Assembly: GCA_024679065.1 (NCBI GenBank)
Contig: JAGIQG010000020.1
Location: 8,990,001 to 9,054,000 of the forward strand
DNA length: 64,000 nucleotides
Direction of reading: 5' to 3'
Origin: Sphyrna mokarran
Taxonomy: Eukaryota
A program made the position numbers and the translations under genes. Below, in pieces: positions 775-57,000 of the stretch. Each line of letters starts with the position of its first letter. The first letter of the stretch is position 1. The notes under the pieces were generated by a model. The model ran no database searches. It was not told the origin of the DNA and saw nothing but the letters and a program-made list of their open reading frames with translations.

Positions 775-1700
775 TCGGAACTTCCGTAGCTTACCACATC
801 ATTGTAATTCCCTTCAGACTCCCCACGAATTGCCGAATGGTGCAAATTGCAAAATGGAAAGTTTCATTCCTTCGACCACGAAGCTGAGTGTGGTGCCCTG
901 GCCGGAAGAAAGTGGCATCACCGCACACCAGGTGCCTTGAAAGAAATAAAATTAGACCGCAGAAGAAATAATGTAATGGTTATTGTTCATGTCCGCGGAC
1001 CTCGACAGCGAATTCGTGTCTGTGGGGAGCTGGGGGAAAAAGAGGAATGCAGAGATTCCAATTCAGAAATGGTCACTGTTCCACAATTATCCTGAATGCA
1101 GATATATTCTATAGGCTCACTTCCTTGTACCAGCTACTGTGTCCCCCCTCCGCCCCCAACCACCCCCCAATTACCCCTTCATTACTGTCTGTGTGACTGG
1201 CAGGAACCGAGAGAAATAATGCATTGTCATTGAGTGGAATGTTCCAAACTGCCTCTCTGAGCTTACCTCCCACCAGAATCTATATTTATTCATCTACTCA
1301 CAAAGCGAAGGCTTTCGTAGTTTGAATTCGACGCAGAAATTAATGTTGATTTTACCGACAATTGTGGAAAAAAATTAACTTTCGTTAAACTGGATTTACT
1401 TTCATTCAACGTTTCTCTAGATGCGTTTGGACCAATTGGAACTTATCAATCATGCAACGATTAAACAGGGCTGAATGTGAAAGGGTGAAGGGGAGGAATC
1501 AAAGCCTCTTTGATGATGTTTCTGCACTGCAGCAGTTCGGTGCTGGATATCACAAGTTTCAACGTTGCTCCTTGCGGTGGGAGTCTGTTTATCTGACAAT
1601 ACACAGCACAGTATTGGGCTTCAAAACCCACACGTAACTAGTAAGCGGCGGCGGCGGGTTATCTGCAAACTCCCCACGTCCCACATCCGCACGCAGCAGT
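775..1700 (+). promoter_or_regulatory. Putative lymphoid-type promoter/enhancer of the Ig receptor gene
   Basis: RUNX-type sites ACCACA 793, TGTGGT 889, ACCGCA 920, TGCGGT 1573 and ETS-type CTTCCG 781, CCGGAAG 902, CACTTCCT 1118 in largely non-repetitive DNA upstream of the V exon. Confidence 0.35.
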
Positions 1701-1783: not shown

Positions 1784-2198
1784 ATGAACGGCCTGACATT
1801 AATATGGATACACACGTCGAGTTTCTGGCCAGTCTGGATGCTGAGTGTCGCTGAAGGGATTTCCATTGACCAGAGGCCAGATGTTGTCGATGTGGCCGAA
1901 GGAGGTGCAGCAAATTTGACCTGTATGTATTCTGCTGCTGAAATTAAAGACTTTGAAATCAACTGGATGCACCAACCAAATGGAACTCATCAGTCCTATA
2001 TTTTTTACATGGGCAATTACAAGGTAAATCGACCAATTCAAGTGGTACATACAAATGGCCAAAATCAGAATGTATCCCAGATATTCATGACCCAACTTCA
2101 GGTGGGAGACGGCGGCGTATATTATTGTGAATTCAGAATTCTCAGTGCAGTGTCCAATGAAACAATAAAGGGGAGTGGGAGCAGATTGATATTTAAAG
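1784..2198 (+). CDS. Ig receptor exon: signal peptide + V-set domain
   Basis: Canonical Cys-Trp-Cys with Cys residues 68 codons apart, DxGxYYC, GxG motif, four N-glycosylation sequons (NLT, NGT, NVS, NET); phase-1 donor AAAG|GTAGGT at 2198/2199. Confidence 0.9.
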
Positions 2199-3992
2199 GT
2201 AGGTCCTGCTTTCTATATTTCAAAATGTATTTGTTTTTAATTCTTATTTTATGGAACATCGGATGCTACGGCAAGGCCAGTATTTGTTGCCAATTCCTAA
2301 TCGCCCTTGAACTAAGTGGATTGCTAGGCCATTGCAGAGGGCAGCAACATTGCTGTGAGTCTGGGGTGATCAGGTCAGCAAGGTAAATATTGTTCCCTAA
2401 AGGACATCAGTGAACCAAGTCTTGCTTTCATAGGAATCGATAATAGTTTCATGGTCACCATTACTGAGACTAGCTGATCAATCCATCACATCACTACATT
2501 CATGACCAAGTCCTTATTAGTGATGTGATGGTAACATACAAACCAGAAGCAGGAGTAAGCCATTTGGCCATTCGAGCCTATTCCGCCATTCATTTTGATC
2601 ATGGCTGGTCATTAAATTCCATGTCCTGATCCCATCATCCCTCCATATCCCTTGACCCTTTTACCTCCACTGGGCTGAGTTCCATGATCTGTGTCAGGAG
2701 CCAGTGATCAGGGGTGCAATTGGTGAAGCGCACTGTCTGGGGAGGGCGAATGGTCAGCAGTGGTGTTTCTGGTCAGGATCCAATCTCAGTGCCTCTTGCT
2801 GGAAAGTGGTGTGGTGTAAGGTATGACGCCAGTAGCGGGTTGGAGCAAGGATCAGGAAGGATTGCCAGTGCAAGAATTGAGAATGGGCGCTTGGTGTCTA
2901 TTGAACTTTCATCCAGCAACAAACAAGACGTGCAGGGGAAGAATGAGAGAAAGTGGGTATAAAATATGGAAATGCTCAACATGCAACTAGTCTCAGTGAA
3001 TACACATGGACAATCTGACTCCAATTGCACTTCAATAAAAGAATACTGCGGCTGCTGGAAGTCTGGATGTGTTCAAAATGCAATTGGTTTCAGTGAATAA
3101 ATGTAGATAATTTGCATCCAATTGTAGTTTAATGAAAGCAAGATACTGCGGAAATATGAGCACAAAGTGCTGAAAAAAATCATCAGGTCAGGCTGCATTT
3201 GTGGAGAGAGAAACAGGGTTGGACAGTTGTTTCAAATTCGTCTAACTCTTTTTCAGAGTCATATGAACTCTTCTATTCCTCCCTCCTCAGGTGCCCCCAG
3301 GCCTGTTGAGTTTCACCAGCATTTGCTGTTTTATTTACAATTTTACTTCACATTGATTCAGTCATTGGCAGAGATGTGGTTAGTGTGTCAGCAGCATTTC
3401 AGCCTAAACACATGTTATAATATTTATTACAGACCCGTCCATCATTTCCACATCAGGTTGTAAGTGGTTAGATAGTACCTTTCCAACAATTATTCTGTTA
3501 CTCGCAATTTCATTCCGAAATCAGGATTTGCACCACCTCCTCGGCCTGTGAGGGAATTGTGACTGTCAAAACAGCTGGAACTTCATCCTAAGTTTGGAGA
3601 GTAACGGTTTTGGCGACAAGTTGTCATCCACACTAATAGATGTGAGATTCTCATTGATATCGCCAGAAGAAGTTATGATCTCTAAACTAAGACTTAAAAT
3701 CTTAAGATGGAGAAGAATGTCGAATCCATCATGTGTAAATATGTGGTTGTAAACAGGCAGAACTATATTTAATCCATAATTTTGTTGATATTTTCAGAAC
3801 ACAATTTGGAATGTTAGGTTTTACTGGGGTCATTGTTGACCTTATGCTATTTATTTGATTGTTGTTCTATTTTCAGGGGAAACAAGTCTTATATAAGCAA
3901 TTAGTGTCACAAACCAATAAGAATTAACGTGTCCGTTAAATTATCTCACTAAAATCCTGCCCCGTAGTCTTCATTTCTACCTCCCCTCTCCC

Positions 3993-9413: not shown

Positions 9414-9749
9414 GCTGCAACTTTACAGCCCTGACCGCAGGCGCTGAGAATGTAAAATTAAATCAGAAAATACAGAAGACACTCAGCAGGTCAGGCAGCA
9501 TCTGTAGGGGGAGAAAGAATGATACATTCTCACTTCATGTTAACTTGTACCGTCATTTAATCACTCCTGTCTTTCACCCTATCTCATTTCTTGACTTCCT
9601 ATCTCCGTTTTGCTCCACAATCTGCTGATTATCTCCAGAATCTTTCGCTTTTTTTTACTGGAGCTGCCACATCATTATTTAAGTGGAGATTACTTGTCAC
9701 GGTTCCCTTTCTGTCATTCCACGTACTATTCTGTAATATTTTTGTAATA

Positions 9750-11975
9750 GAATCATAGAGGTTTACAGTATGGAAACAGGCCCTTCGGCCTAACTTGTTC
9801 ATGTCGCCCTTTTTTTAAACCCCTAAGCTAATCCCAATTGCCCACATTTGGCCCATGTCCCTCTATACCCATCTTACCCATGTAACTATCTAAATGCTTT
9901 TTAAATGATAAAAGGGCTGGAATGGTTACAAAGAACAAAGAACAACACAGCACGGGAAACAGACCCTTCGGCCCAACGAGCCTGTGCCGCCATCCTAACG
10001 TCTTAATGCCATATAGGGACCAAAAGAGGGACAATTTGTTACCCAATCAGCCTAAGAGCACATTTTGGGGATGTGGGAGGAAACCGGAGCACCCGGAGAA
10101 AACCCACGCAACCACAGGGAGAACGCGCTAACTCCTGCAGACACAGGCCCAAATCCATGTGTCTGCACAGCAACAGCAATAGTCTCTGAGCTGTAATGTT
10201 GCCCATCTGATGGTCCAGTTTAAGCATACACTAACGACGTGAAGCACTAGGCCACTCCTGAAGCAACATCCAAGAGCAGCCCTCGCATGACCTACCGAAT
10301 GCATGCACCTTGTTGGTCAACAAGGTGGATCGAATAGCCTGTGGAAACAAATAAGATATTTAGACAGTCCTGTTATATCCCTCTATCTGCAGACCGCTCA
10401 TGTGGCTGTCCAAGAGACCCTTAAACAACCCTAGCATGCCTGCTCCCACCACCTTACTCGGTAGCGCATTCCACACCCCTACTACCCTTTGTGTGAAAAA
10501 CTGCCCTCTAATATTCGTCTTATACATAGCCCCCCTCATCCTAAGGCCATGACCCCTCGTTCTATCCATTTCTAATGGTGGAAAAAGCTTACCACCATTT
10601 ACTCTATCTATACCCCTCACAATCTTATATACCTCTAATAGACCCCTTCTCTATGAGAGGACATGCTCATGAGAGTTGCTATAAGAGGACACAGGTTTAA
10701 GGTGCTATGGAGCAAGTGCAGAAGAGATATCAGGAGTAAGTTTTTCACTCAGAGGATGGTGGATGAGTGGAATCGGCTGCCGTCAGTAGTGGTGGGGGCA
10801 AATTTGATAGGGTCTTTTAAGAGACTTCTGAATGAGTACATGGAATTTAATAGAATTGAGGGTTATAGATAAGCCTAGTAGGAATGGATATAATCGGTGC
10901 AAATTGTGGGTGAAGGGCCTGTTTGTGCTGTAGTTTTTCTGTGTTCTATGTTCTGTGTTTTACCTCTGCAACTTGTCCCAGACACTCACCACCCTCTGTG
11001 TGAAAAAATTGCCCCTCTGGACACTTTTGCATCTCTCCCTTCTCACCTTAAACCTATGCCCTCTAGTTTTAGGCTCCCTTACATTTGGGAAAAGATATTG
11101 ACTATCTACTTATCTACGCCAATCATTATTTTATAGACCTCTATAAGGTCACCCCTCAGCCGCCTACGCTCCAGAGAAAAAAGTCCCAGTCTATTGAGCC
11201 TCTCCTTATAACTCAATCCATCAAATCTCGGTAACATCCTAATAAATCTTTTCTGCACTCTTTCTAGTTTAATAATATCATTTCTATAAGAGAGTGACAA
11301 GAATCGTACACAATATTCCCAAGTGTGGCCTTACCAATGACTTGTACAACTTTCCAGCTCCTGTATTCAATATTCTGACTGATGAAACCAAGCATGCTTA
11401 ATGACTTCTTCACCACTCTGTCCACCTGTGACTTCACTTTCAAGGAACTATGAACATATGCCCCTAAATCCCTTTGCTCTGTAACTGTCCCCAGTGCCTA
11501 CCATTAACTGAGCAAGTCCTGCTCTGGTTCAATCTACCAAAACATATCATCTTGCATTTGTCTAAATTAAACTCCATTTGCCATTCATCAGCCTAATGGC
11601 CCAATTGATCAAGATCTCATTGCAATTGGAGATAACTTTCTTCACTGTCCACTACATCACCAATTCTGGTGTCATCTGCAAACTTACTAATCATGTCCCC
11701 TATATTCTCATCCAAATTTTTATAAATGACAAATAACAGTGGGCCCAACACTGATCCCTGAGACACACCATTGGTCACAGGCCTCCAGTTTGAAAAACAA
11801 CTCTCTACAATCACCCTTTTTTTGTATCCACTTAGATACCTCACCCTGGATCCTATGAGATTTGACCTTATGCAACAACCTACCATGCGATACTTTGTCA
11901 AAGTCCAACTAGACAACATCAACTACACTGTCTTTAGCTATCTTCTTGTCTACCCCTTCAAAAAACTCAACAAAA
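9750..11975 (-). mobile_element. Nested CR1 cluster: older minus-strand CR1 (9750-9920 + 10960-11975) interrupted by a minus CR1 (9927-10640) and a plus CR1 fragment (10660-10960)
   Basis: RT peptide fragments in ORFs 10360-10620, 10663-10872, 11106-11300, 11617-11922; host element sequence resumes across the inserts. Confidence 0.8.
9927..10640 (-). mobile_element. CR1 3' end with extended 3'UTR (acceptor + hairpins + V-SINE core), copy 1
   Basis: ORF2 end ...IEGYNRTV* at 10360, followed by an about 430-nt UTR shared with four other copies. Confidence 0.85.
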
Positions 11976-12600: not shown

Positions 12601-13562
12601 GATGACAGAAGACAGAGATGGTTGTGAAGGATTGTTTTTCAAACTAGAGGCCTATGGCCAACAGTGTACCTCAAGGATCAGTGCTGGGTTCTCTGTTATT
12701 TGTTATTTATATTAATGATTTGGATGAGAATTTAGGAGGCAAGGCTAATGAGTTTGCAGATACACCAAGATTGATGGCATAGTGGGTAGTGAAGACGTTA
12801 GGATGGTGGCACGGGCTCGTTGGGCCGAAGGGCCTGTTTCCCATGCTGTGTTGTTCTTTGTTCTTTGTTCTTTGTTGTCTCAGGTTGCAATGGGATCTTG
12901 ATCAATTGAAACAATGGGCTGATGAATGGCAGATGGAATTTAATTTAGGTAAATGCGAAAAGATGCATTTTGATAGATCAAACCAAGGCAGACTTACTCA
13001 GTTACTGGTAAGGTGTTGGGGAGAGTTACAGAACAAATAGATCTCGGGGTATATGTTCATAGGTCCTTGAAGATGAAGTCAGAGGTGGACATAGTGATGA
13101 AGAAGGCATTCAGCATGTTTGGTTTCATTGGTCAGAGTGTTGAATACTGAAGTGGGACATCTTCTGAAAGTTGTACACGACATTGTTGAGGTCACACTTA
13201 TAATAATGAGTAGAGTTCTGATCCCCTTATTATAGAAAAGATATTATTAACTGAGAAAGAGTGCAGAAAAGATTTACTAGGATATTATTGGTACTTGATG
13301 ATTTGAGTTATAAGGAAAGACTGGATAGACAGGGACTTTTTTCCTGGACTTAGAGGTGATCTTATAGAGGTTTATAAAATATTGTGGGGCATAGATCAGT
13401 TAGATAGTCAACATCTTTTCCCAAAAATTGTGGAGTGTTAAACTAGAGGATGTAGGTTTAAGATGAGAGATGTGAAAGAGTTCAGAGGAGCAATTTTTTC
13501 ACATAGTGGGTGGTCAGCGTCTGGAACAAGCTGCCAGAGGTAGTAATGGAGGTGACTACATG
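12600..13562 (+). mobile_element. Degenerate CR1 RT fragment containing a 75-bp CR1 tail insertion (about 12797-12872)
   Basis: PQGSVLG-like and WADEWQMEFN peptides. Confidence 0.8.
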
Positions 13563-14064
13563 TGCTGAGGTGAGGTGAGGGGAGGGGGTGGTGCAGTTTA
13601 GAACTCCAGCAGGAAATGTGGAGCTCCAGAATAGGTAAGTACTGTAATTGCCATACCTTGGAAAATTCTGTCCATAAATATTTTTCAAAACTTCTAAGTA
13701 ATATTTGACTGTAGCCCCATGCATCTGCCACCATCATTTTTTTTTTCCTATCTGTAAAATTTCAAATTAAATGGCAGGCAATTTTGACAGATTTTGCTTT
13801 CTGGTTTGCTGTCTGTGAGAAAGGCTGAGTCTGATTTGTTGCTTGGTCTGCTTGATGACATCACTGCTGCTGGAAAATCATGATCCGCTTAGCTTGGCAC
13901 AGCTCCAAACTGAGGAAAGGAAGTTGCTCCTTCTTTGTAGGCAGTTTCCCTCCAGGCCAGAGATATGTGCCTCAGTACTGACAGCAGAAATCCAGCCCAA
14001 AAATTATTAATATCTTCCAAAAAATTGTTTCATTCATACAGTTTCACTCATATTAAAGATCAAA

Positions 14065-15440
14065 TTGTGAGGGAGAGAGACAGTGTGAGGGTGAAAGAGT
14101 GTGAGGGAGAGAGAATCTGAAGGAGAAAGCGTGAGAGAGTCAGAATGAAGGGGATTGTGAGCGTGAGAAAGGAAGTGTGTGGGGGAGAAAGTGTGTGAGG
14201 GAGAATGATTAGATTAGATTAGATTAGAGCAACACAGCACGGGAAACAGGCCCTTCGGCCCAACAAGCCCGCGCCGCCGTCATAACTATGTAGTAACAAT
14301 TCCATTATCCTATTCTAATTTTAAGTTATTCCTAATATGGAAGAGTCTCAATGTAGGGACAATTTGTTTCCCAATCAGCCTAAGAGCGAATTTTTTGGGA
14401 TGTGGGAGGAAACCGGAGCGCCCGGAGAAAACCCACGCAACCACGGGGAGAACGCGCAAACTCCCGCAGACACCGGCCCAATTCCAAGTGTCTGCACAGC
14501 TACAGCGATAGTCACTGAGCTGTCATGGTGCCCTTCAGATGGTCCAGATAAAGCACTCATTTACGACATGAAGCACCAGGCAACCCATGAATCAACATCC
14601 AACAGCTGTCCTCGCACAACCTGCCGAATGCATGCTCCTTGTTGGTCAAGTATGGACCGAATTACCTGTGGGAAAAAAAGCCATAGTTAAACAGTCCTAC
14701 TATATCCCTCTATCTGCATAATGAGTGTGAGGAAGAGACAGTGTGTGGTGTGAGTGTGAGGGAGAGAAAATGTGAGGGAGAGTGTGAGGAAGAGAGAGTG
14801 TGAGGGACAAAGTGTATAAGAGGTGGGCGAAAGTGAGTGAGGGTGTGAGGGACAGAGTGTGTAAAGGAGAGAGAGCATGGAGTGTGAGTGTGAGGGAGAG
14901 ACAATGTGAGGGATAGTGTGAGGAAGGGAGAGTGTAAGGGAGAGAGTGTGTAAGGAGTGGGAGACAGTGAGTGAGGGTGTGAGGGAAAGAAAGTGTGAGG
15001 GAGAGAGTGTGTTAAGGGTGTGAGGAAGAGAGTGAGAGGAAGAGAGAGTGTGAGGAAGAGAGAGTGTGAAGAGTGGGAGAGTGTGAGGGAGAGTGTGTAT
15101 GAACGATGGGAGAGTGTGGGGGAGAGAGAATGTGTGGGGTTGTGTGTGAAGAAGTGAGAGTATGAAGGAGAGAATGTGTGAGGGGTGTGTGTGTGAGGGG
15201 CAGAGAATGAGAGTGAGAGAGAGTGTGAGGGAAAGAGTGTGAGGAAGAGAGAGTGTGAAGGAGAGAATGTGTGAGGGGTGGCAGAGTGTGAGGGAGAGAT
15301 AGTGTGAGGGGTGTGAGTGTGAGGGACAGAGAATGAGAGGGAGGGACAGAGAGTGTGAGGGAGTTAAAAATTGATGAGGGCAGGGTGTGTGTGGTTTAGA
15401 AATTGTGAGAGGGAGGAGAGAGAGAGTGTGTGTAGTTGGG
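14065..15440. repeat. (GA/GT)-rich imperfect simple repeat (GTGTGAGGGAGAGA-like), interrupted by a CR1 3' end
   Basis: Low-complexity purine-rich tandem repeat seen directly. Confidence 0.9.
14206..14718 (-). mobile_element. CR1 3' end with extended 3'UTR, copy 2, (TCTAA)n tail
   Basis: MQIEGYSRTV* at 14687, shared UTR module, GATTA repeats at about 14207-14226. Confidence 0.85.
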
Positions 15441-16074
15441 GCAGAGGGTATCCATAAGGCTAACTCACTCCCAGTATCAGAGTCACTCGCCCTTCCTCAT
15501 GCAGCACCATGATGCATTCTCACAGTGGGTGAGTGAACGAGTGAGCAGCCTGACACTGTGAGTGAGCTGAACACACACCATCCTGTAACACTCTAATACT
15601 CATTTGCACATAATGCTCATTTTTATTCAGAAGGTTACTTTGTTTCATAACTTAGTTTTTTAAATTTATTTCTAAAATTGCTTTTTAGACAATAATTGAT
15701 CTTTTTAAAATTTTCTGAAAATGCTGGTTTAGCCTGTATTTATCTCAAAATTCTACATTGGTAAAGGAGTTGAAGATAATGATTGAAAGAGTGACTTGTG
15801 GCTTTTTGAAACAGTGGACTGCCACTTTAAACATCTGCTAGCACTCCTTAAGAAGTTACACAGCATGTGAATACGGCCAGTATTTCGGATGACCATTCCT
15901 TAGAGCAGCCAGCTGTTTGAGAGTAAACAAGAGAATGAGTAAATATTTGAGAATGTCAATTTCAAACGCCACTTAAAGGGAAATTCACCACTTCATGATC
16001 ATCACTGCTGGATCTGTGAAGGGAATCTCTCAAACACATCAACAGACTTTCTGGGACATTTGCCAAGACTTAGA

Positions 16075-20221: not shown

Positions 20222-20822
20222 TAAGAAATACTTAGATGGGCACATGAACAGAATGGGAATGGAGGGGTATAGAAAACTGATTTAAAATAGGGATCATGAG
20301 CCTTCGGAGTCCCTGGGAAGTGTGTAAATAGATGATGATATTGATGTACTTGTTTTTACCCTACAGATGCTTTGGTCCACCTTGTTGTCTAACGAGGGGC
20401 ATACACGTGATGGGTCGTGAGAGGGCTGCTCTTAGATTTTTTTTTCGAGAGTATCATAGTGCTTCACGTCATTAGTGCGTGCTTGACCTGGACCATTTGA
20501 TGGGCAACACGACAGCTCAGTGACTATCGCTGTGCTGTGCAGATACATGGATTTGGGCCTGTGTCTGTGGGAGTTTGCGCATTCTCCCCGTTCTTGCGTG
20601 GGTTTTCTCCGGGTGCTCCGGTTTCCTCCCACATCCCAAAGATGTGCTCTTAGGCTAATTGGCAAAACAAATTCTCCCTAAATTGTCTCAAATTTGGTTT
20701 TTAATCCATAGATCTACAAACATGGACAGGGATCACAGGTAGAGGTGGGAACATTGGGGTGGCGGCGCGGGCTCGTTGGTACGAAGGGCCTGTTTCGCAT
20801 GCTGTTTTGTTCTTTGTTCTAA
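20222..20822 (+). mobile_element. CR1 3' end with extended 3'UTR, copy 3
   Basis: KKYLDGHMNRMGMEGYRKLI* then shared UTR module; nearly identical to the copy at 25083-25680. Confidence 0.88.
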
Positions 20823-21799
20823 TTACCCCTCATGCCCTGTCTGAATTTATCATGTCCTTTAGGCTCCCTTCCTGCTCCCTTCATTCTTTTTCCATAAAAA
20901 TGCCGACCACCCACCCTCCCTTCTGGTTACCCATGTTAGCTGATATTGTTAATAGCTCTCTCTCTTCAGGTAAGATCTCTCTCTCCTTAAAAACTGTGGT
21001 CATCACTTCTACACCTTTAAAAAAGACTGACACAACAATCCTTGTTAATAACTGCCTCATCCTCAAATCCCTTCTGTTTCCTAAGTTCTGGAATGTGGTG
21101 CTTTCTCCTAACTATATAAACCTATCTTTACAGGATTTCTATTTTGAATCCCATCAGCCAAGTTTCTACTTCAGTCACAACACCAACACGGCTCTTATCA
21201 AAATCACAAATGACTTCTTAAGTGAATTCTCAAAATAAACTATCCCTTCTTATACACTTCCATCTGCTTACAATCTTTGGCATTGGACCACATTAACCTC
21301 TTCCAATTCCTATCTGCCATCATTTGATTTGGTGATATTGAATTTGCTGATTCCATTTTTAACTAGATTATCATAACATGAAGATTGCTGAAAAGGGACA
21401 TGCTACCAAAGCTTTTCATTTTGTACTGCTCTGGACAAATGTAAGAATGCCAAATTCCAGATGATCACAACAATTTATACTATAAGTGGAAATGGAGTAC
21501 TTGTTGGTTGGCAAGGTGATGGAGTGGGACTTGCCAAATAAATAGCTGGGAGTTTGATGACTGAGGTATTCTTGCAGTTTATTCTTTTCCACAAATAAAT
21601 CAAATTTTGGTTGAATTTAGCATTTAACTAAATTTACCATTTAACTTAAATTGCAATTTCTTTCAGTCTTAAGCAAGGAAAAAGATATTCTCTACTGGAG
21701 AGCAGCTATACAAAAATAGTTAATTAGGAAGCTAGATTAATCTAGTTTTGGTAGATGCAATAAACTGATTGCTCTCTGTGTCTCAGTATAATAAATACA

Positions 21800-25082: not shown

Positions 25083-26575
25083 TCAAAGATCAAAGAACAA
25101 AACAGCATGGGAAACAGGCCCTTCAGCCCAATGAGCCCGCGCCACCACCCCGATGTTCCCACCTCTATCCGTGATCCCTGTTCATGTTTATAGATCTATG
25201 GATCAAAAACCAAATTTGAGACAATTTAGGGAGAATTTATTTTGCCAATTAGCCTAAGACACATCTTTGGGATGTGGGAGGAAACTGGAGTGCCCGGAGA
25301 AAACCCATGCAAGCACGGGGAGAATGCACAAACTCCCACAGACACAGGCCCAAATCCATGTATCTGCACAGCACAGCGATGGTCACTGAGTTGTTGTGTT
25401 GCCCATCAAATGGTCCGGGTCAAGCGTACACTAACGATGTGAAGCACTAGGATACTCTCGAAAAAGATCCAAGAGCAGTCCTCTCACGACCCATCGCGTG
25501 TATGCCCCTCGTTAGACAACAAGATGGACCAAAGCACCTGTAGGATAAAAACAAGTACATCAATATCATCATCTATTTACACACTTCCCAGGGACTCCCA
25601 AGGCTCATGATCCCTATTTTAAATCAGTTTTCTATACCCCTCCATTCCCATTCTGTTCATGTGCCCATCTAAGTATTTCTTAAATAACTCCAGAGTGCCT
25701 GCCTCCACCACTTTACTTGGCAGCGCATTCCATACCTCCATCACCCTCTGTGTGAAAAAACTCCCTCTAGCATCCAAATTATACCTTACCCCCCTCACCC
25801 TAAGCCCGTGACCCCTCGTGCTATTCAAGTCCATTCTAGGAAAAAGCTTAACCCTGTTTACTCTATCTATACCCCTCATAATCTTGTACACCTCTATTAG
25901 ATCTCTTCTAAGTCTACGTCTTTCTAAGGAAAGCAGTCCCAATTTGCCTAACCTCTCCTCGTAACTCAGACCTTCCATACCAGGCAGCATCCTGGTAAAC
26001 CTCCTCTGCACTCTCTCCAGAGTCTCGACGTCCTTCCGGTAGTAAGGCGACCAGAACTGGACACAGTATTCCAAATGAGGTCTAACCAACATTTTATACA
26101 ACTGCAACATTAAAGGTCACCTCTTGGACTCTATACCCCTTTCTATAAAGGCTAACATACTATATGCTTTCTTCACAACCTTCTCCACTTGCTCTGCCAC
26201 CTTCAGAGACTTGTTCACCTGAACCCCCAGGTCCCTCTGCATTTCTATACTCTTAATAGGTCTACCCTTTATCATATACCTCCCCCCTACATTCTTTCTC
26301 CCGAAATGCATCACCTCACATTTACCAGGATTGAATTCCATCTGCCCAAGCTACCAGTCTATCTATGTCCTGCTGCATCACCTGACAACGCTCTTCACTA
26401 TCCGCAAGTCCAGCCATCTTTGTATCATCTGCAAACATGCTGATCACTCCACTTACTCCCTCTTCCAAATCATTTATACATATTACAAATAGAAGAGGTC
26501 CCAGTACTGAGCCCTGCGGCACACCGCTAGTGACCGACCTCCAGCTAGAAAAACACCCTTTCACTATTACTATCT
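25083..26575 (-). mobile_element. CR1 LINE (RT 3' half with frameshifts) with extended 3'UTR, copy 4
   Basis: ORFs 26322-26564, 26117-26341, 25619-26110; UTR 25618-25083. Confidence 0.92.
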
Positions 26576-27587
26576 GTCAATTTCAAATATCAATTTCAAA
26601 TGTAATATGGAATACAAATAAGTTATGATCACTTTTTCCAAACGATCTTTTACTTTAAGTTTACTAGTGAATTTTGCCTTATTGCAAAATACTAGACCTA
26701 AAATAGATTTATACCTCAGCTCTGAAGGAAACTTGAAACATTAACTCTGTTTCTTTCTCCAAAGATGCTGCCAGACCTGCTGGGTTTTTCCAGCAGTTTC
26801 TGTTTTTATTTCAGATTTCCAGCATCCAGAGTAATTTGCTTTCTATTTAGCTTTATTCCACAACATATTGCTCCAGGAAACACTCATGAAACCATTCTAC
26901 AAACTAACTCATCTTCCAAAATAACTTTACTAATTTAACATTTCCACTTGATATGAACACCAATATTCCCTTGAGATCATAGTAGCAGGAGTAGGCCATT
27001 CTGCCCCACCTTTCAATAACATTTTGGCTGATCTGATTGTGACCTTAACATCAATTTCCTGCCTGTGCTCCCTAACCTTAGATTCTGTAATAGATCAAAA
27101 TTCTAGTTCACTGCCTTGAACCTACTCAATGACCCAGCCTCCCTGGTCTCTGGGGAAGGATGTTCCAGAGATTAACATTATGCTGGGAGAAGACATTTCT
27201 CCATCTTAAATTTAATTTTAAATTATGCCTCCTAGTTTTGTGTTACCTTAAGAGGAAAAACATCCCCTCGGTATCTACCACATCAAATTGTCTCAGAATC
27301 TTTTATATTTTAGTAGGATCACCCCTCATTCTTTTAAACTTCAATGAGTACAGGCCAACTTGATTAAACTTCCCTCGTAAGAGAAGGCTTTCATTTCAGG
27401 AATTAGCCTACTGGTTAAGTATCTTTTATTTGCAAATCCGACAACTGAACTATAAAAGCCAGGCACGCTTCAGACATCATCAAGAGGCTGACGACTTTAT
27501 TACTAAAGTAATAAACTAAAACTATTAGATATTTATAAATAAATATAAAGATATTTATTGATAATGAGCAGTGAGCCCACACTGCAC

Positions 27588-31274: not shown

Positions 31275-33890
31275 TCATAGAGTCATAGAGGTTTACAACA
31301 TGGAAACAGGCCCTTTGGCCCAACTTGTCCATGCCACCCTTTTTTTTTAAACCCCTAAGTTAATCCAATTGCCCGCATTTGGCCCATATCCCTCTCGACC
31401 CATCTTACTCATGTAGCTAATTAAATGGTTTTTAAAAGACAACATTGTACCCGCCTCTATTACTACCTCTGACAGTTTATTCCAGACACTTATCATCCTC
31501 TGTGTGAAAAAACTGCCCCTCTGGACACTTTTGTATCTCTCCTCTCTCAACTTAATCCTATACCCTCTAGTTTTAGGCTACCTTTGGGAAACATAATGAC
31601 TATCTAGCTGATCTGGCTATTTTATAGACCTCTATGAGATCACCCCTCAGCCTCCTACACTCCAGAGAAAAAAGTCCCATTTGTCCAGCCTCTCTTTATA
31701 ACCCAAACAATCAAGTACCGGGAGCATCCTAGTAAATTTTTTATGCACTTTTTCTAGTTTAATAATGTTCTTTCTGTAATACTGTGTCACATTTCCTGTA
31801 TTCAATGTTCTGACTGATGAAACTAAGCATGCCAAATGCCTTCCTCACCACGTTGTCTGTCTGTAACTCTACTTTCAAAGAGCTATGAACATGTACCCCT
31901 AGGTCACTTTGTTCATTAAATCTCCCTAACGCTTTACCATTAACTGAGTAAGTCCTGTCCTGGTTCAATCTACCAATATGCATCATCTCGCATTTGGCTA
32001 AATTAAACTCCATCTGCCATTCATCAGCCCACTGACCCACTTGATCAAGATCTCATTGCAATTGGAAATAACTTTCTTCACTGTCCACTATGCCACCAAT
32101 CATAGTGTCATCTGCAAACTTATTAACCATGTTTGCTATATTCTCATCCAAATCATTAATATAAATGACAAACAACAGTGGAGCCAGCACTGATCCCTGA
32201 GGCAGACCACTGGTCATCGGCCTCCAGTTTGAAAAACAACTCTCTACAACCACCCTCTGGCATCTATCAAGAAGCCAATTTTGTATCCATCTGGCTACCT
32301 CACCCTGGATTTCATGGGATTTTACCTTATAGATCAAAGAACAAAACAGCATGGGAAACTGGCCCTTCAGCCCAACGAGCCCACGTGCACCACCTTGATG
32401 TTCTCACTTCTACCCGTGATCCCCGTCTATGTTTATAGATCTATGCATTGAAACCAAATCTGAGACAATTTAGGGAGAATTTGTTCTGCCAATCAGCCTA
32501 AGGGCACATCTTTGGGATGTGGGAGGAAACCGGAGAAAACCCATGCAAGCATGGGGAGAATGTGCAAACCCCACAGACACAGTCCCAAATCCATGTATCT
32601 GCACAGCACAGCGATAGTCACTGAGCTGTCGTGTTGTCCATCAAATGGTCCAGGTCAAGCGTACACTAACAACGTGAAGCATTAGGATATTCTCGAAAAT
32701 GTGATTACAATCAGATCAACCATTATCTTATTAAATAATTCAAAGTCTGAGTGGCCTATCCTGCGTCTAGTTCTTATGTTCACCTAATCTTCTCTCATTT
32801 GTACATTATTCCTATCCTCAAACCTGCCTCCACCTCAATAACATTCAGTTCCTATCCACCTGCATTTCAGGCAGAAAAGGACTAACCTGAGGTGGTGATG
32901 GGCTTTCTTAACTATAGCATTGGCTTGGAGAAACCAAGACAGGTTGTTGGTGATCTGGGCACCAAGAAACTTGAAGCTCTCAACTCTCTCAAGAGGTTAG
33001 TGAAATCTGGCACGTCCACTACAACTTTTCCCAATTTTCACTGATGCACCATAGAAAGTATCCCTATCTGGTTGCATCACAGCTTGGTATGGCTCCTACT
33101 CTGACCAAGACTGCAAGAAACTACAAAGGGTTATGAATGTAGCCCAGTGCATCATGCGAACCAGACCCCACCCCCATCCATTGACCCCATCTACACTTCC
33201 AGCTGCCAGCATAATCAAGGATCCCATGACCCCAGAAACACACTCTTTGATAAGAAAAAAGATACAAAAATCTGAAAATATGTACCAATAGACTCAAGAA
33301 AGTCTTCCCTGCTGTATCCAACTTTTGAATTGTCCTAGCATATATTAAGCTGATCTTTTGCTTAATGCTACCTGTAACTGCAACACTATATTCTACACTC
33401 TATCGTTTTTTTTTTCCCAATGCATATCATGACTGGTACCTTTTGTCTGTATAGACATTTCACTGCCTGGTACGTATAGCAATCAAAGAAATCAAGTTCT
33501 TACCGTCCCTAGTGCCTTACGCAATAACCTACCATGTGATATCTTGTCAAAGGCCTTGCTAAAGTCAATGTAGACAACATCAACTTCACTGCCCTCATCT
33601 ACCTTCTTGGTTACCCTTTCAAAAAACTCAAAACAAATTTGTGAGACATGATTTTCCATTCACAAAGCCATGCTATCTGTCCCTAATCAGTCCTTGCAAC
33701 TCTAAATGCCTGTAGATCGTGTCTCTCAAAATATGTTCCATTCACCCACCACAAATGTAAGGCTCACTGGCCTGTAGTTCCCAGGCTTTTCCCTGCAGCC
33801 CTTTTTAAACAAAGGCACAACATTAGCCACCCTCCAATCTTCAGTCACCTCATCCACAGCTATCAATGATTCAAATATCTTGGCCTCTTT
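31275..33890 (-). mobile_element. Minus-strand CR1 (31275-32330, 33500-33890) interrupted by extended-UTR CR1 copy 5 (32331-32700) and a Rex1/Babar fragment (32870-33495)
   Basis: RT peptides in ORFs 31647-32352; shared UTR module; TIESILSGCITAWYG-like Rex peptide. Confidence 0.75.
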
Positions 33891-37299: not shown

Positions 37300-43262
<5,963 letters not shown>

Positions 43263-46200
43263 CTTTAAGTGCTTCCAAGGATTGCCACAAACTGGTTTAA
43301 AGACAAGATTTTACTGCAGGACAATGAGGGAAAAATACAATGAGGCAAGGAACAACAAGACAACAAAAATGCGAAGCAAAAATAAAAGCAAAATACTGTG
43401 AATGCTGGAATCTGAAATGAAAACAGAAAATGCTGGATAATCTCAGCAGGTCTGACAGCATCTGTGGGGACAGGATACTTGTGGAGATTTTCCAAAACAA
43501 AGCAATAAGGTACCACCCATTTTCAGGTATAAAGTTTTAAATTTATTTATAAGTATCGCAAGCAGGCTTATATTTTACTGCAAATATTATGAAGATCCCC
43601 CAGTCATCACACTTCAGCACCTGTTCATGTACACTGAGGGAGAATTTAGCAATGTACCTAACCTGCTTTTCTCAGGCCGTGAGTTGATACCGGAGCACTC
43701 TCAGACTACGCACAGATAGTGCTAGGAATTGAACCTGGGTCTTTGTCACTGTAAGGCAGCAGTGCTAACCACTATGCCACCATGCATGTAAAAGCTACAA
43801 TCCCTTCAATAGCAGCAATTAACATGTATGCCAAGTCAAATTAGCCAAGATATGAAACCCTGTCTAAAACCAAACTCTTCTGGAAAGTACAAGAGAGTGG
43901 AAAGACGGAACCAGATTGGGTTGAAGTGCTCCCTTCTGTAGCTTTAACAGCTTGTCAATATTCATAACTTGCCAGTGAACTACCCACATTCATATCCTTT
44001 ATACCCCAACATTAGTCATCTTCAGGCAATCGGACCAAATTCCCAAGATTGTTTTCAGCAGATTTATCTAGTGAGCCATTAAAGTCAGAAGGTACCACTT
44101 GTCATTCCTACACCATCCAGTTAGCTGGACACAGCCAAAACTCATTAAATCAAAATAAAAACAATCACCTGTATTTACTTAGCACCTTTTATAACTTCAG
44201 CACATCCTAAAGCACTTTACAGCCACGGAAGCATACTCAAGATGCAATCACCGTGATGTCAGAAAACACCAGCTAACGTGTACACCACAAACTCTCTCAA
44301 TGAGTCAAAGGACAATCAGTTGGTTGGGCATAAATATTGGCACAAAAACCCATCTGATCTTCCTCAATTATTGACATGGGATGTTCCCATCCATTTGATA
44401 GGACAAATGAAGGCCCGGAATTTTAAAATCAATACTATTCAGAAACACGACGAGATCATACTGAGAAATAAGATTCCAGGGTAAGTGGAGTTGACAGCAT
44501 TTATAGAAGATATTTTCCCTTTGTGAGAGGATCTAGACCCACGATGCACTGGATTCCCCATTTGAGATCAAGGCAAGGAAAAATTTCTACTGGGCACGAT
44601 TAATCTTCGGAACTCTCGATCCCAAAAGGCAGTGGAGCTCCCAAGTTGAAAATATTCAAGGCTGAGAATATAAGCTACACGGGAATCAAGTGTTATTTGG
44701 GGTCAGAGGGAGGGGAAAATCAGGTAGTAAAGTGGAGCACTAATCAAATCAGTCACGATTTTATTGAATGGTAGAACTGGCACAAAGAGGAAAATGGCCT
44801 CTTCCTGTTACTATTTTGTGTGATTCTCAAAATAGGTGCTCCAGTCTGAGGGGACTTGAACCCACGACTCACTGATTTAAAAAGAAAGTGCTACTGCTGC
44901 ACCATTGATTGAATCAGGTAGATTCTCTGCTAGCAAACTCTGCCAAAAGCTTAAGTGAGCAGCTTATACATATTTTCCCTCCACTATTTGTCATAGTACA
45001 TTATGAAGAAATCCCTAGCCTGTGTCCACCTTCAATCCAATCCAAAGTTGTAAAAAGATTTCTGAATTCCAGGCCAAGTTTGCAGCCTAGCAGGCAGACG
45101 ACAGTATTTCTGGCTGGAAGCTTTACCGCACCAGTGATCCACAAACATTTTTCCTACCTCCTTGCTAGAACCAAGACTCAAGTCTAACTGCAAAAAGCAG
45201 TAGTCAAACTAAATTTTTTCATATCTAAACACTGAAAGTCTTTTGATATCAAGGCATTAGGAAGGATGCAAAACTTTGGTCACATAGAAAGATTGGAGAA
45301 GTTGAGATTGTTATCTTTGCAGAAAGGAAGGTTGAGAAGAAATGTGATGAAGGGAGTCAAAATCATGAAGGGTTTGAACAGTATAGATAGAAATAAACTG
45401 TTCATGTTTGTAAAAGTATCAAGGACCAGAGAGCAGAATCAAAGTAAATGGCAGAAGAAGCAATGGCACAAAGTGAGGAATAAGCCTTTCGTGCAGTGGT
45501 TAGGATCTAGAATGTACTGGCTGAGAGTATGGCGAAGGCAGATTTAATTGAGGCTTTTAAAAAATACTTGGATCATAATCATGAAAAAAAGAAAATTGCA
45601 GAAAAGCTAGAGGAATGCTACCAATACATTACTTCTTCAGAGAGACAACACAACACAATGGACCAAATGGCCTACTTCTGTGCTGTGCACAACAGGACAA
45701 TAATTTGATGCATGGACGCAGAGAGGCAAGTTCATATTTAAGAGTAGACCTGCAACCAAAAAAGAACTACTCTACTGAAACTGATGGGAAGCAAATAAAA
45801 AATTTAAACTCTAGACAGGTTTGGGGAAAGGGATTAAATGAATACATCTTGCAGTGTTGCCACAGGTACAATAGCCCCAATCCACATTGTCAACTTGGTT
45901 TAGTGGTGGAATCAAGTCAGATGATGATAACAAAGAAGCAGTCCTGAATGTCAGGCACATAATCCTGACACGTGTAGAATTGATGGCAATGCTGCATTTC
46001 GTTTCATTTGACACATCAAACCGTGACCCAGTCTAACCTTTCAAATGAAAGGAGCAGGGGATTACTCTACAGCCTCCTGTCAATATCTACCCTATATTCA
46101 GAATTATCAGATTGCACATAATCCCAATTCCTACTACCCTTTATTTAGAGGAAGTGCTTGATTTGACTTATTGTCAAATGTATTAACATGTAGTGAAAAA

Positions 46201-46719
46201 AATTTTGTTTCTTATGCACTATACAGACAAAACATACCATTCACAGAGAAGGAAATGAGAGTGCAGAGTGTAGTTTTACAGTCATAGCTAGGATGTAGAG
46301 AAAGATCAACTTAAGGCAAGTCCATTCAAAGGTTTGACAGCAGTAGAGAAGTAACTGTTCTTGAATCAGTAATAAAGTATAGACTTCATTACTATACTGC
46401 TTGGCTTAACTTGAAAATTATGCCTCACTCTGGAATTCACTACGGGATGAAATAATTTTAATTTACCCTTTCAAATGATCTTAAGAGTTAAAGTTAAATC
46501 ATTGCTCAATCTGACAATTGTACAACGTGCCTTAGTAACGTAATTTGCTAAAAGCATTCCATTACAATAGGGATTACATTTTAAAAGGAGGCAGCAAAAA
46601 AAAAAGACGTTGAAAAATCAGGAGTTGTGAGCATGCATATTCTTTATTCCTGACTCAGAAATGAAGTAGTGCTTTGGAAATAATTTCAGGACGATCAGCA
46701 GTGAATGAGGGTGAAAGAA

Positions 46720-47430
46720 CCGGGCTTAATAAAGCAGCATGGCCCTGCCGCTCAGCGGGTTAGAGCCCAGGAGGCTGGTCTCAACTTGGGCCGTTGAGAG
46801 GCACCGGGACCGCCAACGTGGGGTGGGGGGGTTTGGAGTGCTGTGGCCTGAAGTAACAGGAACTGGGACACGTGTCCGGCAGCGGGTGAACGCTGTCGCG
46901 ATGCAGCATCGCCGAGGGTGCGAACCGAGGCCTCTGGAGCCTAACCGCGAGGCCACACTAGGGCAGCTCGGGTCCGCTCCCAGGGCCGGGGCTCCTCGGG
47001 GTTGCTCTCCCCACCCCCGCCCGGGATCCGGGACCCGGGACGCCCTCTGCCTCCCCCTGGCTCAGAGCCCCTCTCCTCACTTCCCCGGCCAAGGGCCACT
47101 CTCAATCTCTCGCACTCACCTCGAGCTCCGGAAAGAAAGAGAGAGGCGCGGCCCGCGACGTCCCATTAGCCACGGCGCCGCCGCCAACTGACCAATCACC
47201 GCACACATTGCGGTGAGGATTAACCAATCACACAGCGCGGAGTATGGAGCCGACCAATCGACAAAAGATTTTTTTGGAAGGGACAGCCAATCTCAGAGCG
47301 GACCGCATCACAATGGACCAATCAGACAGCGGAGAAGGCTGACACTAGGACAGGCTCCGTCCAATCAAATGCCGCAGGTGCTTCCTCCCAATGAGAGGGA
47401 AGGAGCGAAAGGTCGACCAATTGGAGGAGG
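46720..47430 (-). promoter_or_regulatory. RPLP0: RPLP0 CpG island promoter with eight CCAAT boxes
   Basis: GC/CpG-rich; CCAAT at 47192, 47224, 47254, 47287, 47318, 47361, 47388, 47417. Confidence 0.85.
47120..47146 (-). promoter_or_regulatory. RPLP0: RPLP0 non-coding exon 1 with 5' terminal oligopyrimidine (TOP/TCT) start
   Basis: Minus strand CCTCTCTCTTTCTTTCCGGAGCTCGAG|GTGAGT inside a CpG-rich island. Confidence 0.85.
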
Positions 47431-53781: not shown

Positions 53782-54048
53782 CTAACAGAAGAGCTTGACA
53801 AAGCAGTTGTGACAATAGGGTTTGTCATTCTGCTCCTTGAAGGTGCCCTTGTTGAGCTGTTTCAAGCAGAAAGCACAGACAAAATGCTCTGGGTGGAACT
53901 TCTTCCCCATGGCGGTGATACAGCGTCCTGTGATAGGCTTCTGGCATCCGGAGCAAAGTGAGTTGCGACGCTCGTGATAATGCATCTCACAGTATGGCTG
54001 CCCCTCATGTTCAAAAAAGCTGCCATTTATGAAGGGGGTGAAACATTC
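53782..54048 (-). CDS. PXN: PXN terminal coding exon (LIM3-LIM4)
   Basis: [88 protein letters not shown]. Confidence 0.96.
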
Positions 54049-57000
54049 CTGGAAGTAAAACAGAAAATTACATTTCAAAATATCTTATTATAATAAAACT
54101 GCCATCAATACATGCAGATCATACACTCAGTATGATATTGTGAATTACAGCAGCAATATTCTTGAATTATTTTGTTTTCAATGTGTGCTAATATAGTGAG
54201 TTAATTAGACCATTAGATTATAATTTGCAAGCAACATTTCATTAAAAAGTTTTCCAATTAGACATTGTAGAAAAACACTTTACCTCCACCCACTACTACC
54301 ACCTATTCTCATTCCCACTATGGTTATATAATAAATTATTCCACAACATTTTTTGAGTAAAATTTTTAGGAAACAGAATTTTTTTCACAATATTGCTTAA
54401 GATTACAAACGGTATACTGATACAGAGGAAATTAACTGAATACGATAACATACATCACTTTTTAGGCAAACTCTGCTCACAAGTATTAAAGTGCCAACAG
54501 ATAAAAATGAGTCATTTTTGCACAAGTATGTATCTGGATTTGAAAAATTCAATATAACCATTACAGAAATACAACCACAGTTAAAAATGCTCAAAGTTTA
54601 GACTGAGCCCAGGCTCAAAAGAAAACTGGGAATTTAGGAACAGAAATTGTCCAATATGTTCCCTCTGAAGTTTTTTTAAAATTTAAGTTTCCTTATTAAT
54701 GTGACAAGTAGACATACATTAACATTGCGCCCATTCAGAGTCATTGAGGGACTATTTAGCATGGCCAATGTATCTAATCAGCAACCTGTGCAATTGGATA
54801 AGCTGTTTACAGTTCTCTCACTGACCCCTGTTATTTCAGTTTCCATATACTAGTTTTTCAGACATTTCACCTCATTAAAATGCCTATATAAATGCAAGGT
54901 CATATAGTCTAAGAAGTATCTGAAAGGAATAGTAGTGAAGATGTGGAGAGCTTTAGAGAGGAAATTCCAGAGGATATAAATTAGGAAACTGAACACACGG
55001 CTGAATGAGTTTACAGAGATAGAATAGGACAAGGAGAATTATAATTGCTCACTGGATGTACAAATGCAGACACAATGGGCCCAATGACCTCTTTCTGCAC
55101 AGTAACACTTCTATCAGTTTGAGGGCAGGTAGGGATTTGAAAACAGGAAAGAGAATATTAAAATTAGCTCCTGTATTATAGAAAATCTCAATGAAGGTCA
55201 ACAAATATATGGGGAACATGATTTGATGACAGTTAGGATATGGATAGTGGGGTTTTGGATGAATTTGTCTATTGAGAGCGCAAGATAGAAGATCAGCACT
55301 TGAATAGTTGAGTTTAGAGATTACAAAACCAGCAACAGTTGAGCTAAGGCAGGGATTGAGCCATGCAATGTTACAGCCTATGTTAAGAACAACTACAGAG
55401 GAAACATTTATCAGTGAGAAGTTGTGAAGGTTTGGCAATTCATTGTGGGTAGAATACTATGTATTACTCCGATCAAGAAACAATATTGAGAGTAACCAAG
55501 GTTGAAGAATAAAGTTAGTGGAGGATATAGTGTAGTTTGGAATGCTATGGAGGCAGCTGGGATGACGAAATAAAAAGATCAGATTGTTTTTGTGGGTTGT
55601 CAAAGACAGATTGTGCCTGGTTGAGTTTTTTGAAGATGTGATTAAACACATTGACGAAGAAAGAGCGGTAGATGTGGCATATATAGATTTCAGAAAGACA
55701 TTCGATAAGGTCTCCCATATAAGGTTTATTGAGAAAATGAGGGGGCATGGGATCCAAGAGGGCATTGCTTTGTGCATCCAGAACTGGCTTGCCCGCAGAA
55801 GGCAAAGAGTGGTTATAGATGGGTCTTTTTCTGCATAGAGGTCGGTCACCAGTGGAGTGTCCCAGGGATCTGTTCTGGGACCGTGGCTGTTCGTGAATTT
55901 TTCATAAATGACCTAGATGAGGAAGTGGAGGGATGGGTGATAAGTTGCCGATGACATGAAGGTTGGAGGTGTTGTGGGTATTTTGGAGAGGTGTCGTGGA
56001 TATTTTGGAGAGGTGTCAGAAGTCGCAGCAAGGCATAGATAGGATGCAAGACTGGGCGGAGAAGTGGCAGATGGACTTCAACCTGGGTAAGTGTGTGGTA
56101 GTTCATTTTGGCAGGTCAAATGGGATGAAGGAATATAATATTAAGGGTAAGACTTTTAGCAGTGTGGAAGATCAGAAGGATCTTGGGGTCCAAGTTCATA
56201 GGACTCTCAAATCGGCTTCGCAGGTAAAGGATGTGATTAAGAAAGCGTATGGTGCACTGGCCTTCATTAATCGAGGAACTGAGTTTAGGAGTCGGGAGAT
56301 AATGCTGCAGCTGTATAAGATCCTGGTCAAACCCCACTTGGAGTACTATGCTCAGTCTGGTCACCTCATTAAAGGAAGAATGTAGAAGCCATTGAAAGGG
56401 TGCAGAGGAGATTTACAGGGACATTGCCTGGATTGGGTGGCATGCCTTATGAGGATAGGTTGAGAGAGCTCAATCTTTTCTCTTTGGAGAGATGAAGGAT
56501 GAGAGGTGACCTGATAGAAGTGTACAAGATGTTGAGAGGTATTGTTCAGATGGATTCTCAAAGGCTTTTTCCCACAGCTGAAATGGCTGCAATAAGAGGA
56601 CACAGGTTTAGGGTGTTGGGGAGTAAGTACAGAGGAGGTGCCAGGGGTAAGTTTTTCACTCAGAGGGTGATGAATGAGTGGAATCGGCTGCCATTGGTGG
56701 TGGTGGAAGCAAACTAGCTGGGGTCTTTTAAAAGACTTCTGGATGAGTACATAGGATTGAGGGTTATAGATAGGCCTGGTAGGTAGGGATATGATCGGTG
56801 CAACTTGTGGGCCGAAGAGCCTGTTTGTGCTGTAGTGTTCTATGTTTTAAGTTGTTAGTTATTGGTGGAATTAAGAGTACATCCTGTCAACTAAGAGATA
56901 TTTTAAACAATTTATTCTTCCTTACTTTTATTTATTAGTGCCATAAGTAGGCCTACATTAACATCGTAATGAAGTTATTTTTGAACAGGATCTAGGTGAG

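Follow-up and report, generated by a model that had tools for sequence, protein, structure and literature searches.

A CR1 lineage of Sphyrna mokarran with a captured V-SINE core and a putative 3′ splice site in its 3′ untranslated region

Results

The locus and its CR1 copies

The window analysed here is the whole 64,000-nt stretch of Sphyrna mokarran DNA at positions 8,990,001-9,054,000 (forward strand) of contig JAGIQG010000020.1, assembly GCA_024679065.1. Self-comparison of these 64 kb revealed six copies (A-F) of a module that forms the 3′ end of a CR1 retrotransposon lineage. All of them sit between a V-set Ig exon and an RPLP0-like gene, four on the minus and two on the plus strand (uninformative as to strand bias), and among 19 high-scoring acceptors inspected across the window no host exon spanning the six copies was found. 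The features are as follows:

1787-2200, plus strand: V-set Ig exon with a J-like GxGxxL motif within the same exon
9930-10652, minus strand: copy C, second subfamily; 96 ORF2 codons and 3′ UTR; stop TAA 10362-10360, acceptor G at 10339
12788-12876, plus strand: copy F, C type; tail alone
14206-14720, minus strand: copy D, second subfamily; own linker and tail repeat; stop TAA 14689-14687, acceptor G at 14666
20222-20822, plus strand: copy A, whole; 5′-truncated, A/B subfamily
20222-20285, plus strand: copy A, ORF2 remnant, the last ~21 CR1 ORF2 codons; stop TAA 20283-20285
20286-20340, plus strand: copy A, subfamily-specific spacer, ~60 nt longer than in C and D and unalignable across subfamilies
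20341-20366, plus strand: copy A, predicted 3′ splice site; branch-point-like TTGAT (A at 20344), pyrimidine tract, CAG
20367-20500, plus strand: copy A, segment X; predicted three-way junction, no conserved reading frame
20501-20561, plus strand: copy A, SINE head, remodelled, with an A-box-like remnant and a destroyed B box
20562-20678, plus strand: copy A, V-SINE central (V) domain, assigned by identity to free SINEs
20679-20760, plus strand: copy A, variable linker, 39-53% identity between subfamilies
20761-20822, plus strand: copy A, CR1 3′ tail; stem-loop region and short TGTTCT-type repeats
25084-26576, minus strand: copy B, subfamily of A; ~950 nt of ORF2 and the entire 3′ UTR; stop TAA 25621-25619, acceptor G at 25538
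32330-32700, minus strand: copy E, A/B type; 5′-truncated within segment X, ~77 nt past the AG position
37300-47200, minus strand: RPLP0-like gene with a CpG-rich start near 47.2 kb and Pfam RL10P_insert at 41100-40955
38440-38740, plus strand: CR1-like 5′ UTR and ORF1-start remnant, antisense within the RPLP0-like gene
53800-62440, minus strand: LIM-domain gene, paxillin-like by eye; LIM domains

The RPLP0-like and LIM-domain genes lie side by side, as RPLP0 and paxillin do in human. Upstream of the V-set exon, on the opposite strand, there is a degenerate J-like motif (~850-1030, minus strand); the region of this exon may hold several V-J receptor genes in a cluster, each with a single exon.

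Copies A and B share 93% identity in an alignment of 599 nt which extends into ORF2, and copies C and D share 85% over 366 nt. The four copies with the acceptor-like site thus represent two subfamilies (A/B and C/D) and not four independent cases. All six copies are 5′-truncated, the ORF2 part retained by A, C, and D comprising only 30-290 nt, and no target-site duplications were evident by eye at any of the six.

The window is dense in CR1 pieces, and other repeats adjoin several of the copies. Copy D is inserted into a CT-rich low-complexity repeat of ~1.4 kb (14060-15500). Copy A adjoins a decayed reverse-transcriptase-like fragment (20860-21350, plus strand), L2-like by eye and without a Pfam match; galeomorph sharks are reported to be without L2s in a survey of vertebrate CR1s (PMC13343379). 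Copies C and E (at 9747-11871 and 31277-32790, respectively) are each nested in, or abut, another CR1 of the minus strand, and both come right after the inverted 3′ end of a CR1 from a third family. Such CR1-in-CR1 nesting may represent a target preference.

Affiliation of the element with CR1

The C-terminal 165 aa of the copy B ORF2 match CR1 reverse transcriptases, with no match in Pfam. Identity of this C-terminus is 66-79% to the nearest CR1 proteins in the database and ~55% to those of birds; for the CR1 ORF2 pieces of the window the values are 65-71% to Stegostoma and Mustelus proteins and ~55% to bird ones. In the tree of ORF2 C-termini (42 rows), copies B and C form a clade (support 98/97) with three proteins from ENA contigs (P0123, P0125, and P0126), apart from the CR1 families of the window with short UTRs. 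The C-terminal residues of P0126 are those encoded by the last codons of copy D. The lineage also possesses the CR1 3′ stem-loop region and short terminal repeats without poly(A). By its ORF2 and its tail, the long-UTR element is to be classed as a CR1. Since the ORF2s of B and C share one clade, the module represents, most simply, a single and old acquisition.

Searches with ORF2 gave 55 and 10 loci at 34-71% identity, none from viral contigs, and in these 65 loci the module was absent by blastn and by a covariance model. The module pattern had no matches in metagenome and viral contigs. Among 24 sequencing runs compared by words, one holds over half of the words; the small shares were not used as evidence. 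Vertebrate CR1 ORF2 sequences also occur under bacterial names in short contigs (P0085, P0087, P0108, and loci L056-L062), which is likely a host contamination of bacterial assemblies.

Composition of the 3′ UTR

The 3′ UTR of this lineage is 421-528 nt long, versus 74-95 nt in two other CR1 families. After the AG of the acceptor-like site it includes the following parts: segment X (131-134 nt), the head (61-62 nt), the V domain (116-117 nt), the linker (36-82 nt), and the tail (53 nt). Two thirds of this module consist of a captured V-SINE whose B box is destroyed. The acceptor-like site, segment X, and the SINE parts are absent from all six short-UTR CR1 ends of the window.

The V domain of copy A is identical to those of five free SINEs of the window, which we take to be HE1, in 70/98 to 95/117 positions (71-81%). 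By eye, it also resembles the V_HCD row in the supplement of PMC6887750. Similarity of the head to free SINE heads is weak (24-28 of 41-45 nt), exceeding that of shuffles in three of five comparisons (4, 2, and 14 of 300) and not in the other two. Scored against a box consensus, the B box has 4-5 mismatches of 11 in all four heads (A, C, D, and E), versus 0-3 in seven free SINEs, and no tRNA was called in the window. The tail is nearer to CR1: copy A matches the short-UTR CR1 at 8.5 kb in 44/51 positions, versus 28/37 for the best free SINE tail, and over the module tails the values are 44-46/51 for the same CR1 copy versus 28/37 and 32/43 for the best free SINE tails.

None of the six copies starts at the SINE head: four are joined to ORF2 and two are truncated within the module. 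Because both the promoter (A and B boxes) and an independent 5′ end fail, the module is not a V-SINE in its own right, and we rejected its interpretation as a free one. Hence, a V-SINE head and body lie within the CR1 3′ UTR, preceded by the ORF2 stop and followed by the CR1 tail. This composite anatomy, resulting from a single capture, is the part of our interpretation which we regard as highly probable.

Segment X

In all four copies with complete segment X its folding is stronger than that of shuffled sequences (z -3.0, -3.2, -2.2, and -2.3). The consensus fold is a predicted three-way junction composed of a closing stem, a short hairpin, and an 86-nt hairpin, which in copy A are positioned as follows:

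20374-20379 and 20489-20494, plus strand: closing stem (predicted fold)
20380-20397, plus strand: short hairpin (predicted fold)
20398-20483, plus strand: 86-nt hairpin (predicted fold)

The closing stem begins 7 nt after the AG; the lowest-energy fold of copy C is without it. In the consensus of 43 pairs, 93% of the cells are paired and four pairs have changes on both sides. When the alignment was slid, 38-47% were paired, and the covariation was matched by 12-14 of 500 shuffles. Transfer of the fold across subfamilies gave P<0.05 in four of eight directions and 0.06-0.14 in the other four. We consider the three-way junction likely, short of established.

No Rfam match was found for segment X: copy A had none at E≤5, and copy D gave one chance match (E 6.5) outside the segment. 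Cores of HDV-like and hammerhead ribozymes were not seen in it by eye. The first helix of an HDV-like ribozyme can be drawn in A and B and not in C and D, and this candidate was rejected. A coding role was rejected as well, since the open frames span 0-35 codons and differ between the subfamilies. A covariance model of segment X found, within the window, the known copies and one palindrome only; the match to the latter, at 63.1 kb (E 0.04-0.13, both strands), was discarded as belonging to another repeat. That repeat family carries a near-perfect long palindrome at 63071-63260 and has relatives at 12.5, 17.9, 34.6, 38.2, and 39.7 kb. No sequence related to segment X which could represent its source was found in Rfam or by the covariance model over the window and the 65 loci.

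Conservation between the subfamilies

The first-pass annotation placed the beginning of inter-copy homology exactly at the AG. This does not hold: the ORF2s are homologous across the subfamilies, with 211/288 positions identical between B and C, the alignment of copies A and B runs back into ORF2, and it is the spacer alone which is unalignable. By codon position, 75, 77, and 59 of 96 sites in B and C are identical (61% at third positions), and 15/24 at four-fold sites.

Several parts of the 3′ UTR are conserved above this level. Between the subfamilies, 51-56 of 61 positions are identical in the head (84-92%), 97-105 of 115-116 in the V domain (84-91%), and 45-46 of 53 in the tail (85-87%), followed by segment X (68-75%) and by the linker, which at 39-53% is unalignable. 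Compared with ORF2 third positions by the Fisher test (A vs C for the 3′ UTR segments, B vs C for ORF2), the P values are 2e-5 for the head, 4e-6 for the V domain, 0.003 for the tail, and 0.04 for segment X. Since A and B differ by 7% within one subfamily, the head and V domain have diverged little beyond the decay of individual copies.

Conservation of the head and V domain above ORF2 third positions suggests selection on RNA, and the unalignable linker between two conserved blocks makes such selection preferable to a recent wholesale swap. That a V-SINE core devoid of its promoter is kept in a LINE by selection, as suggested by these comparisons, is the best-supported new point of this work.

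The acceptor-like site after the ORF2 stop

The pyrimidine tract with CAG which the first-pass annotation noticed in four copies is present in each of them (G at 20366 on the plus strand and at 25538, 10339, and 14666 on the minus strand). Its description of the preceding spacers is also borne out: the distance from the stop to the AG is 81 nt in A and B and 21 nt in C and D, and the two types do not align.

The sites were scored by an untrained, approximate vertebrate 3′ splice-site matrix, which was applied to the 8,492 AGs on both strands of the window. With this approximate matrix, copies A, B, C, and D score 6.3, 7.9, 7.9, and 8.2 and rank 58, 20, 21, and 10 (top 0.1-0.7%). Motif strength alone is not rare, the score of the weakest site being equalled or exceeded at 58 of the 8,492 AGs. 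The values fall within the range of six host acceptors of the window, which score 4.3-10.5 with the same matrix (two exons confirmed by Pfam, four by eye). No AG above -2.4 was found in the six short-UTR CR1 ends. In one short-UTR family the stop is followed by a T9 run without an AG, which indicates that T-rich spacers arise anyway. A strong acceptor-like site (9.4 at 9502, minus strand) occurs also in another dispersed repeat (9443-9520, 26751-26848, and 43380-43473).

Of the features of a U2-type 3′ splice site, the tract, the YAG, and the zone of 20 nt free of AG are found in all four copies, and a branch-point-like yUnAy motif ~22 nt upstream in three, copy C being without it. In copy D this motif, TTAAC, overlaps the stop TAA. 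Resemblance to an intron/exon boundary, proposed in the first reading of the sequence, is partly supported by the matrix score, the AG-free zone, the retention described below, and the restriction to one clade, and does not extend to the branch-point-like motif in copy C.

Between the subfamilies, 14-18 of the 30 nt before the AG are identical. Within the 22 nt before the junction there are 8-10 differences, and CCACAG/CTACAG is retained despite them. Under random change, retention of the observed score has a probability of 0.007-0.033, and that of a score of at least 6 a probability of 0.02-0.10, in a post hoc test based on the approximate matrix and on 2-3 lineages. Such retention through 8-10 changes suggests selection, and the site resembles a 3′ splice site under selection, one confined to the CR1 clade of B and C.

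Donors, spliced copies, and spliced peptides

All four copies which reach the AG are unspliced, and the absence of a spliced junction among them excludes only a spliced share above 53%; no copy of the six starts at AG+1. Searches for database proteins with a post-AG peptide covered two frames, the remaining ones being too short: for frame 1 of A/B there were 35 candidates, none at E≤10, and frame 0 of copy C gave two unrelated repeat proteins only. These negatives are also expected from an ORF-less RNA, which gives no peptide.

The ORF2 remnants of B and C have no strong donor in common, the best ones (4.1-4.2) being located at different places, so the donor would have to be in the absent 5′ part of the element. 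A small intron within the spacer was rejected, with no donor above 1.5 in the ORF2 end and spacer of copy A.

Donor motifs were sought by eye in the catshark CR1 consensuses of the PMC13343379 supplement. GTRAGT occurs within the first 400 nt in 9 of the 12 consensuses which start in the 5′ UTR and in 1 of the 11 which start in coding sequence (P 0.003; 0.19 expected per 400 nt), these 23 consensuses being mutually related families, none of them linked to the clade of B and C. In the same supplement, ScyCan_CR1-7a and -11a have a pyrimidine tract with AG just before the ORF1 start. Inside the window, the CR1-like leader remnant at 38440-38740 carries the consensus donor TTG/GTGAGT at 38512, and an acceptor-like site at 38538 which is too near to this donor for an intron. 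Judging from such motifs, shark CR1s in general may use splice signals.

A splicing role of the acceptor is plausible from its sequence, and its use in vivo seems to us slightly favoured. If it is used, the main donor would probably be in the 5′ leader, by analogy with the catshark consensuses. Frequency of donor motifs in shark CR1 5′ UTRs speaks for an ORF-less RNA rather than for one with ORF1 only or for trapping of host exons.

Discussion

Proposed origin and use of the composite 3′ end

The best explanation of these data, which we advance tentatively and at a little under even confidence, is a composite CR1 3′ end whose acceptor pairs with a donor in the element’s own 5′ leader to yield an ORF-less RNA. 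The V-SINE head and body would have been captured once into the 3′ UTR, in the ancestor of the clade, and the captured SINE would now be transcribed within the element’s Pol II RNA and kept by RNA-level selection. Transcription of CR1 by Pol II from the leader is established (PMC2734521). The unspliced RNA would serve as the template for copying, and in a fraction of the RNA the leader would be spliced to the acceptor with the loss of both genes, giving a short non-coding RNA with the CR1 tail. Splicing would be partial, and the stem beginning 7 nt after the AG is a candidate modulator or export signal. The CR1 reverse transcriptase recognises the CR1 tail, which the spliced RNA composed of leader and module would keep, and this RNA could be copied in trans.

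Since inheritance of the acceptor runs only through RNA which is left unspliced, it is the full-length element that must profit from it. The candidate benefits are dosage control, or definition of the 3′ end and last exon together with export. A bolder version, rather unlikely in our opinion, is that the SINE swapped its Pol III promoter for the spliceosome, forming a two-RNA CR1 clade in which a mobile structured V-domain RNA tunes the element. If this is true, a V domain deprived of the Pol III promoter would act at the level of retrotransposon RNA.

Alternative explanations

The composite UTR may be real and selected while its acceptor is unused: the U-rich tract would be kept for protein binding or by hitch-hiking, or the site would be a relic intron-exon boundary of captured host sequence. 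We consider this somewhat unlikely. It agrees with the lack of splicing in any of the four copies and of a spliced peptide in the searches, with the T-rich spacer without AG in another CR1 family, and with the probability of up to 0.10 that the score stays at 6 or more by chance. Against it, CCACAG/CTACAG, the AG-free zone, and the branch-point-like motif at about -22 were kept while 8-10 of 22 nt changed. Unspliced intron sequence can shield a transcript from silencing (PMC8770142), which also agrees with an unused acceptor; in the same study a spliced stuffer with splice sites alone gave no protection, and this weakened the interpretation of the splice signals as a shield from HUSH silencing. 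Another alternative accepts splicing and places the donor at the end of ORF1, so that an ORF1-only messenger supplies ORF1 protein in excess. In copia-type elements, spliced gag messages supply excess protein in this way. The gain for the full-length element would be direct, which would explain why the site is kept; every post-AG frame closes within 0-35 codons; and in vertebrate CR1s ORF1 codes for an esterase, or else the element clusters with relatives in which it does (PMC13343379). However, the post-AG frames are unconserved between the subfamilies, no protein ends in the peptides of the two tested frames, and the ORF2 remnants are without a strong common donor (best 4.1-4.2), so that we hold an ORF1-only messenger to be quite improbable.

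That the acceptor serves chiefly to trap host genes, as a mobile last exon, appears very improbable. The 5′-truncated copies A, C, and D do keep the acceptor, and its score lies in the range of host acceptors. However, trapped RNAs would lose the acceptor on copying, so trapping cannot maintain it; none of the six copies is joined to a host exon, and no host exon was found at 9.9-32.7 kb (19 high-scoring acceptors of the window inspected, partial gene search). Trapping of host exons may nevertheless occur as a side effect. To the least probable reading, in which the module is an independent long SINE, repeatedly fused to CR1 by template switching or recently swapped between CR1 subfamilies, we give hardly any credence. 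High conservation would then reflect recent exchange and not selection, in agreement with the two different spacers between stop and AG, with the module being more alike than ORF2 between the subfamilies, and with the swapping of tails and modules described for SINEs and LINEs (PMC5786205). It is opposed by the occurrence of both ORF2 types in one clade, by the patchy identity along the module, which is not expected from one recent swap, by the lack of a free module with its own 5′ end among the six copies, and by the destroyed B box.

Significance

Conservation of SINE central domains across animals is an open question (PMC6887750). The V domain described here is cut off from Pol III and is nevertheless 84-91% conserved, which points to a role in RNA or in copying. 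CR1-group elements comprise 22-34% of shark and ray genomes (PMC13343379); with this abundance and with six copies in 64 kb, a working acceptor would also truncate host transcripts frequently.

Should the acceptor be used, the element would be a LINE whose built-in splice takes out all of its coding sequence, and would offer a route to CR1 partners without ORFs. Balanced splicing is known from simple retroviruses, and the arrangement in this LINE would resemble it.

Comparison with known systems

In the full-text literature, the scope of our search (Repbase, Dfam, the original V-SINE papers, and published shark consensus 3′ ends lying outside it), no description of a composite CR1 3′ UTR was found. 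Neither splicing nor the structure of the 3′ UTR came up in a keyword search of the main text of the 2026 vertebrate CR1 survey (PMC13343379). The composite 3′ UTR is apparently undescribed, and an unannotated consensus of the family may exist already.

With canonical vertebrate CR1s (the shark HER1 type and the short-UTR families of the window) the lineage shares ORF2, 5′ truncation, the 3′ stem-loop, and short terminal repeats; it differs by a 3′ UTR several times longer and by the acceptor, segment X, and SINE parts, which they lack. The shark V-SINE HE1 has HER1 as its partner LINE (PMC3747384). The order of head, V domain, linker, and CR1-type tail is the same as in V-SINEs; in contrast to them, the B box is destroyed here, the head is remodelled, the tail is nearer to CR1 tails, and the whole sits in sense orientation after a LINE ORF2 and is copied within the LINE.

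A V-SINE was captured also by MER6/MER6A, a Mariner-derived MITE (PMC6887750). In both cases the V domain has been spread by another mobile element after its own promoter was lost. As presented in that paper, MER6/MER6A is a non-autonomous DNA transposon which has no RNA stage and took the body and tail without the head, whereas the host here is a coding retrotransposon lineage in which the V domain is apparently selected across subfamilies.

Splicing of LINE RNA is represented by the SpIREs, for which a donor in the L1 5′ UTR is joined to internal acceptors, and the spliced RNA can be retrotransposed (PMC5860796). Human L1 spliced copies amount to ~2% of the full-length ones and are termed dead ends in the same paper. 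The L1 acceptors are located in the 5′ UTR or ORF1, whereas here the acceptor follows the ORF2 stop, and its use is predicted to remove all the coding sequence.

Non-autonomous LINEs which keep ORF1 (HeT-A, HAL1, and Ag-Sponge) and ORF-less bipartite LINEs composed of a 5′ end and a 3′ end (in RTE, Ingi, Vingi, and R2) are reviewed in PMC5786205, whose list has no ORF-less bipartite element of the CR1 clade. The predicted spliced product of the lineage described here, a leader joined to a tail, would be of the same bipartite kind; the difference is that the bipartite LINEs arose by internal deletion, whereas here the two ends would be joined by the spliceosome.
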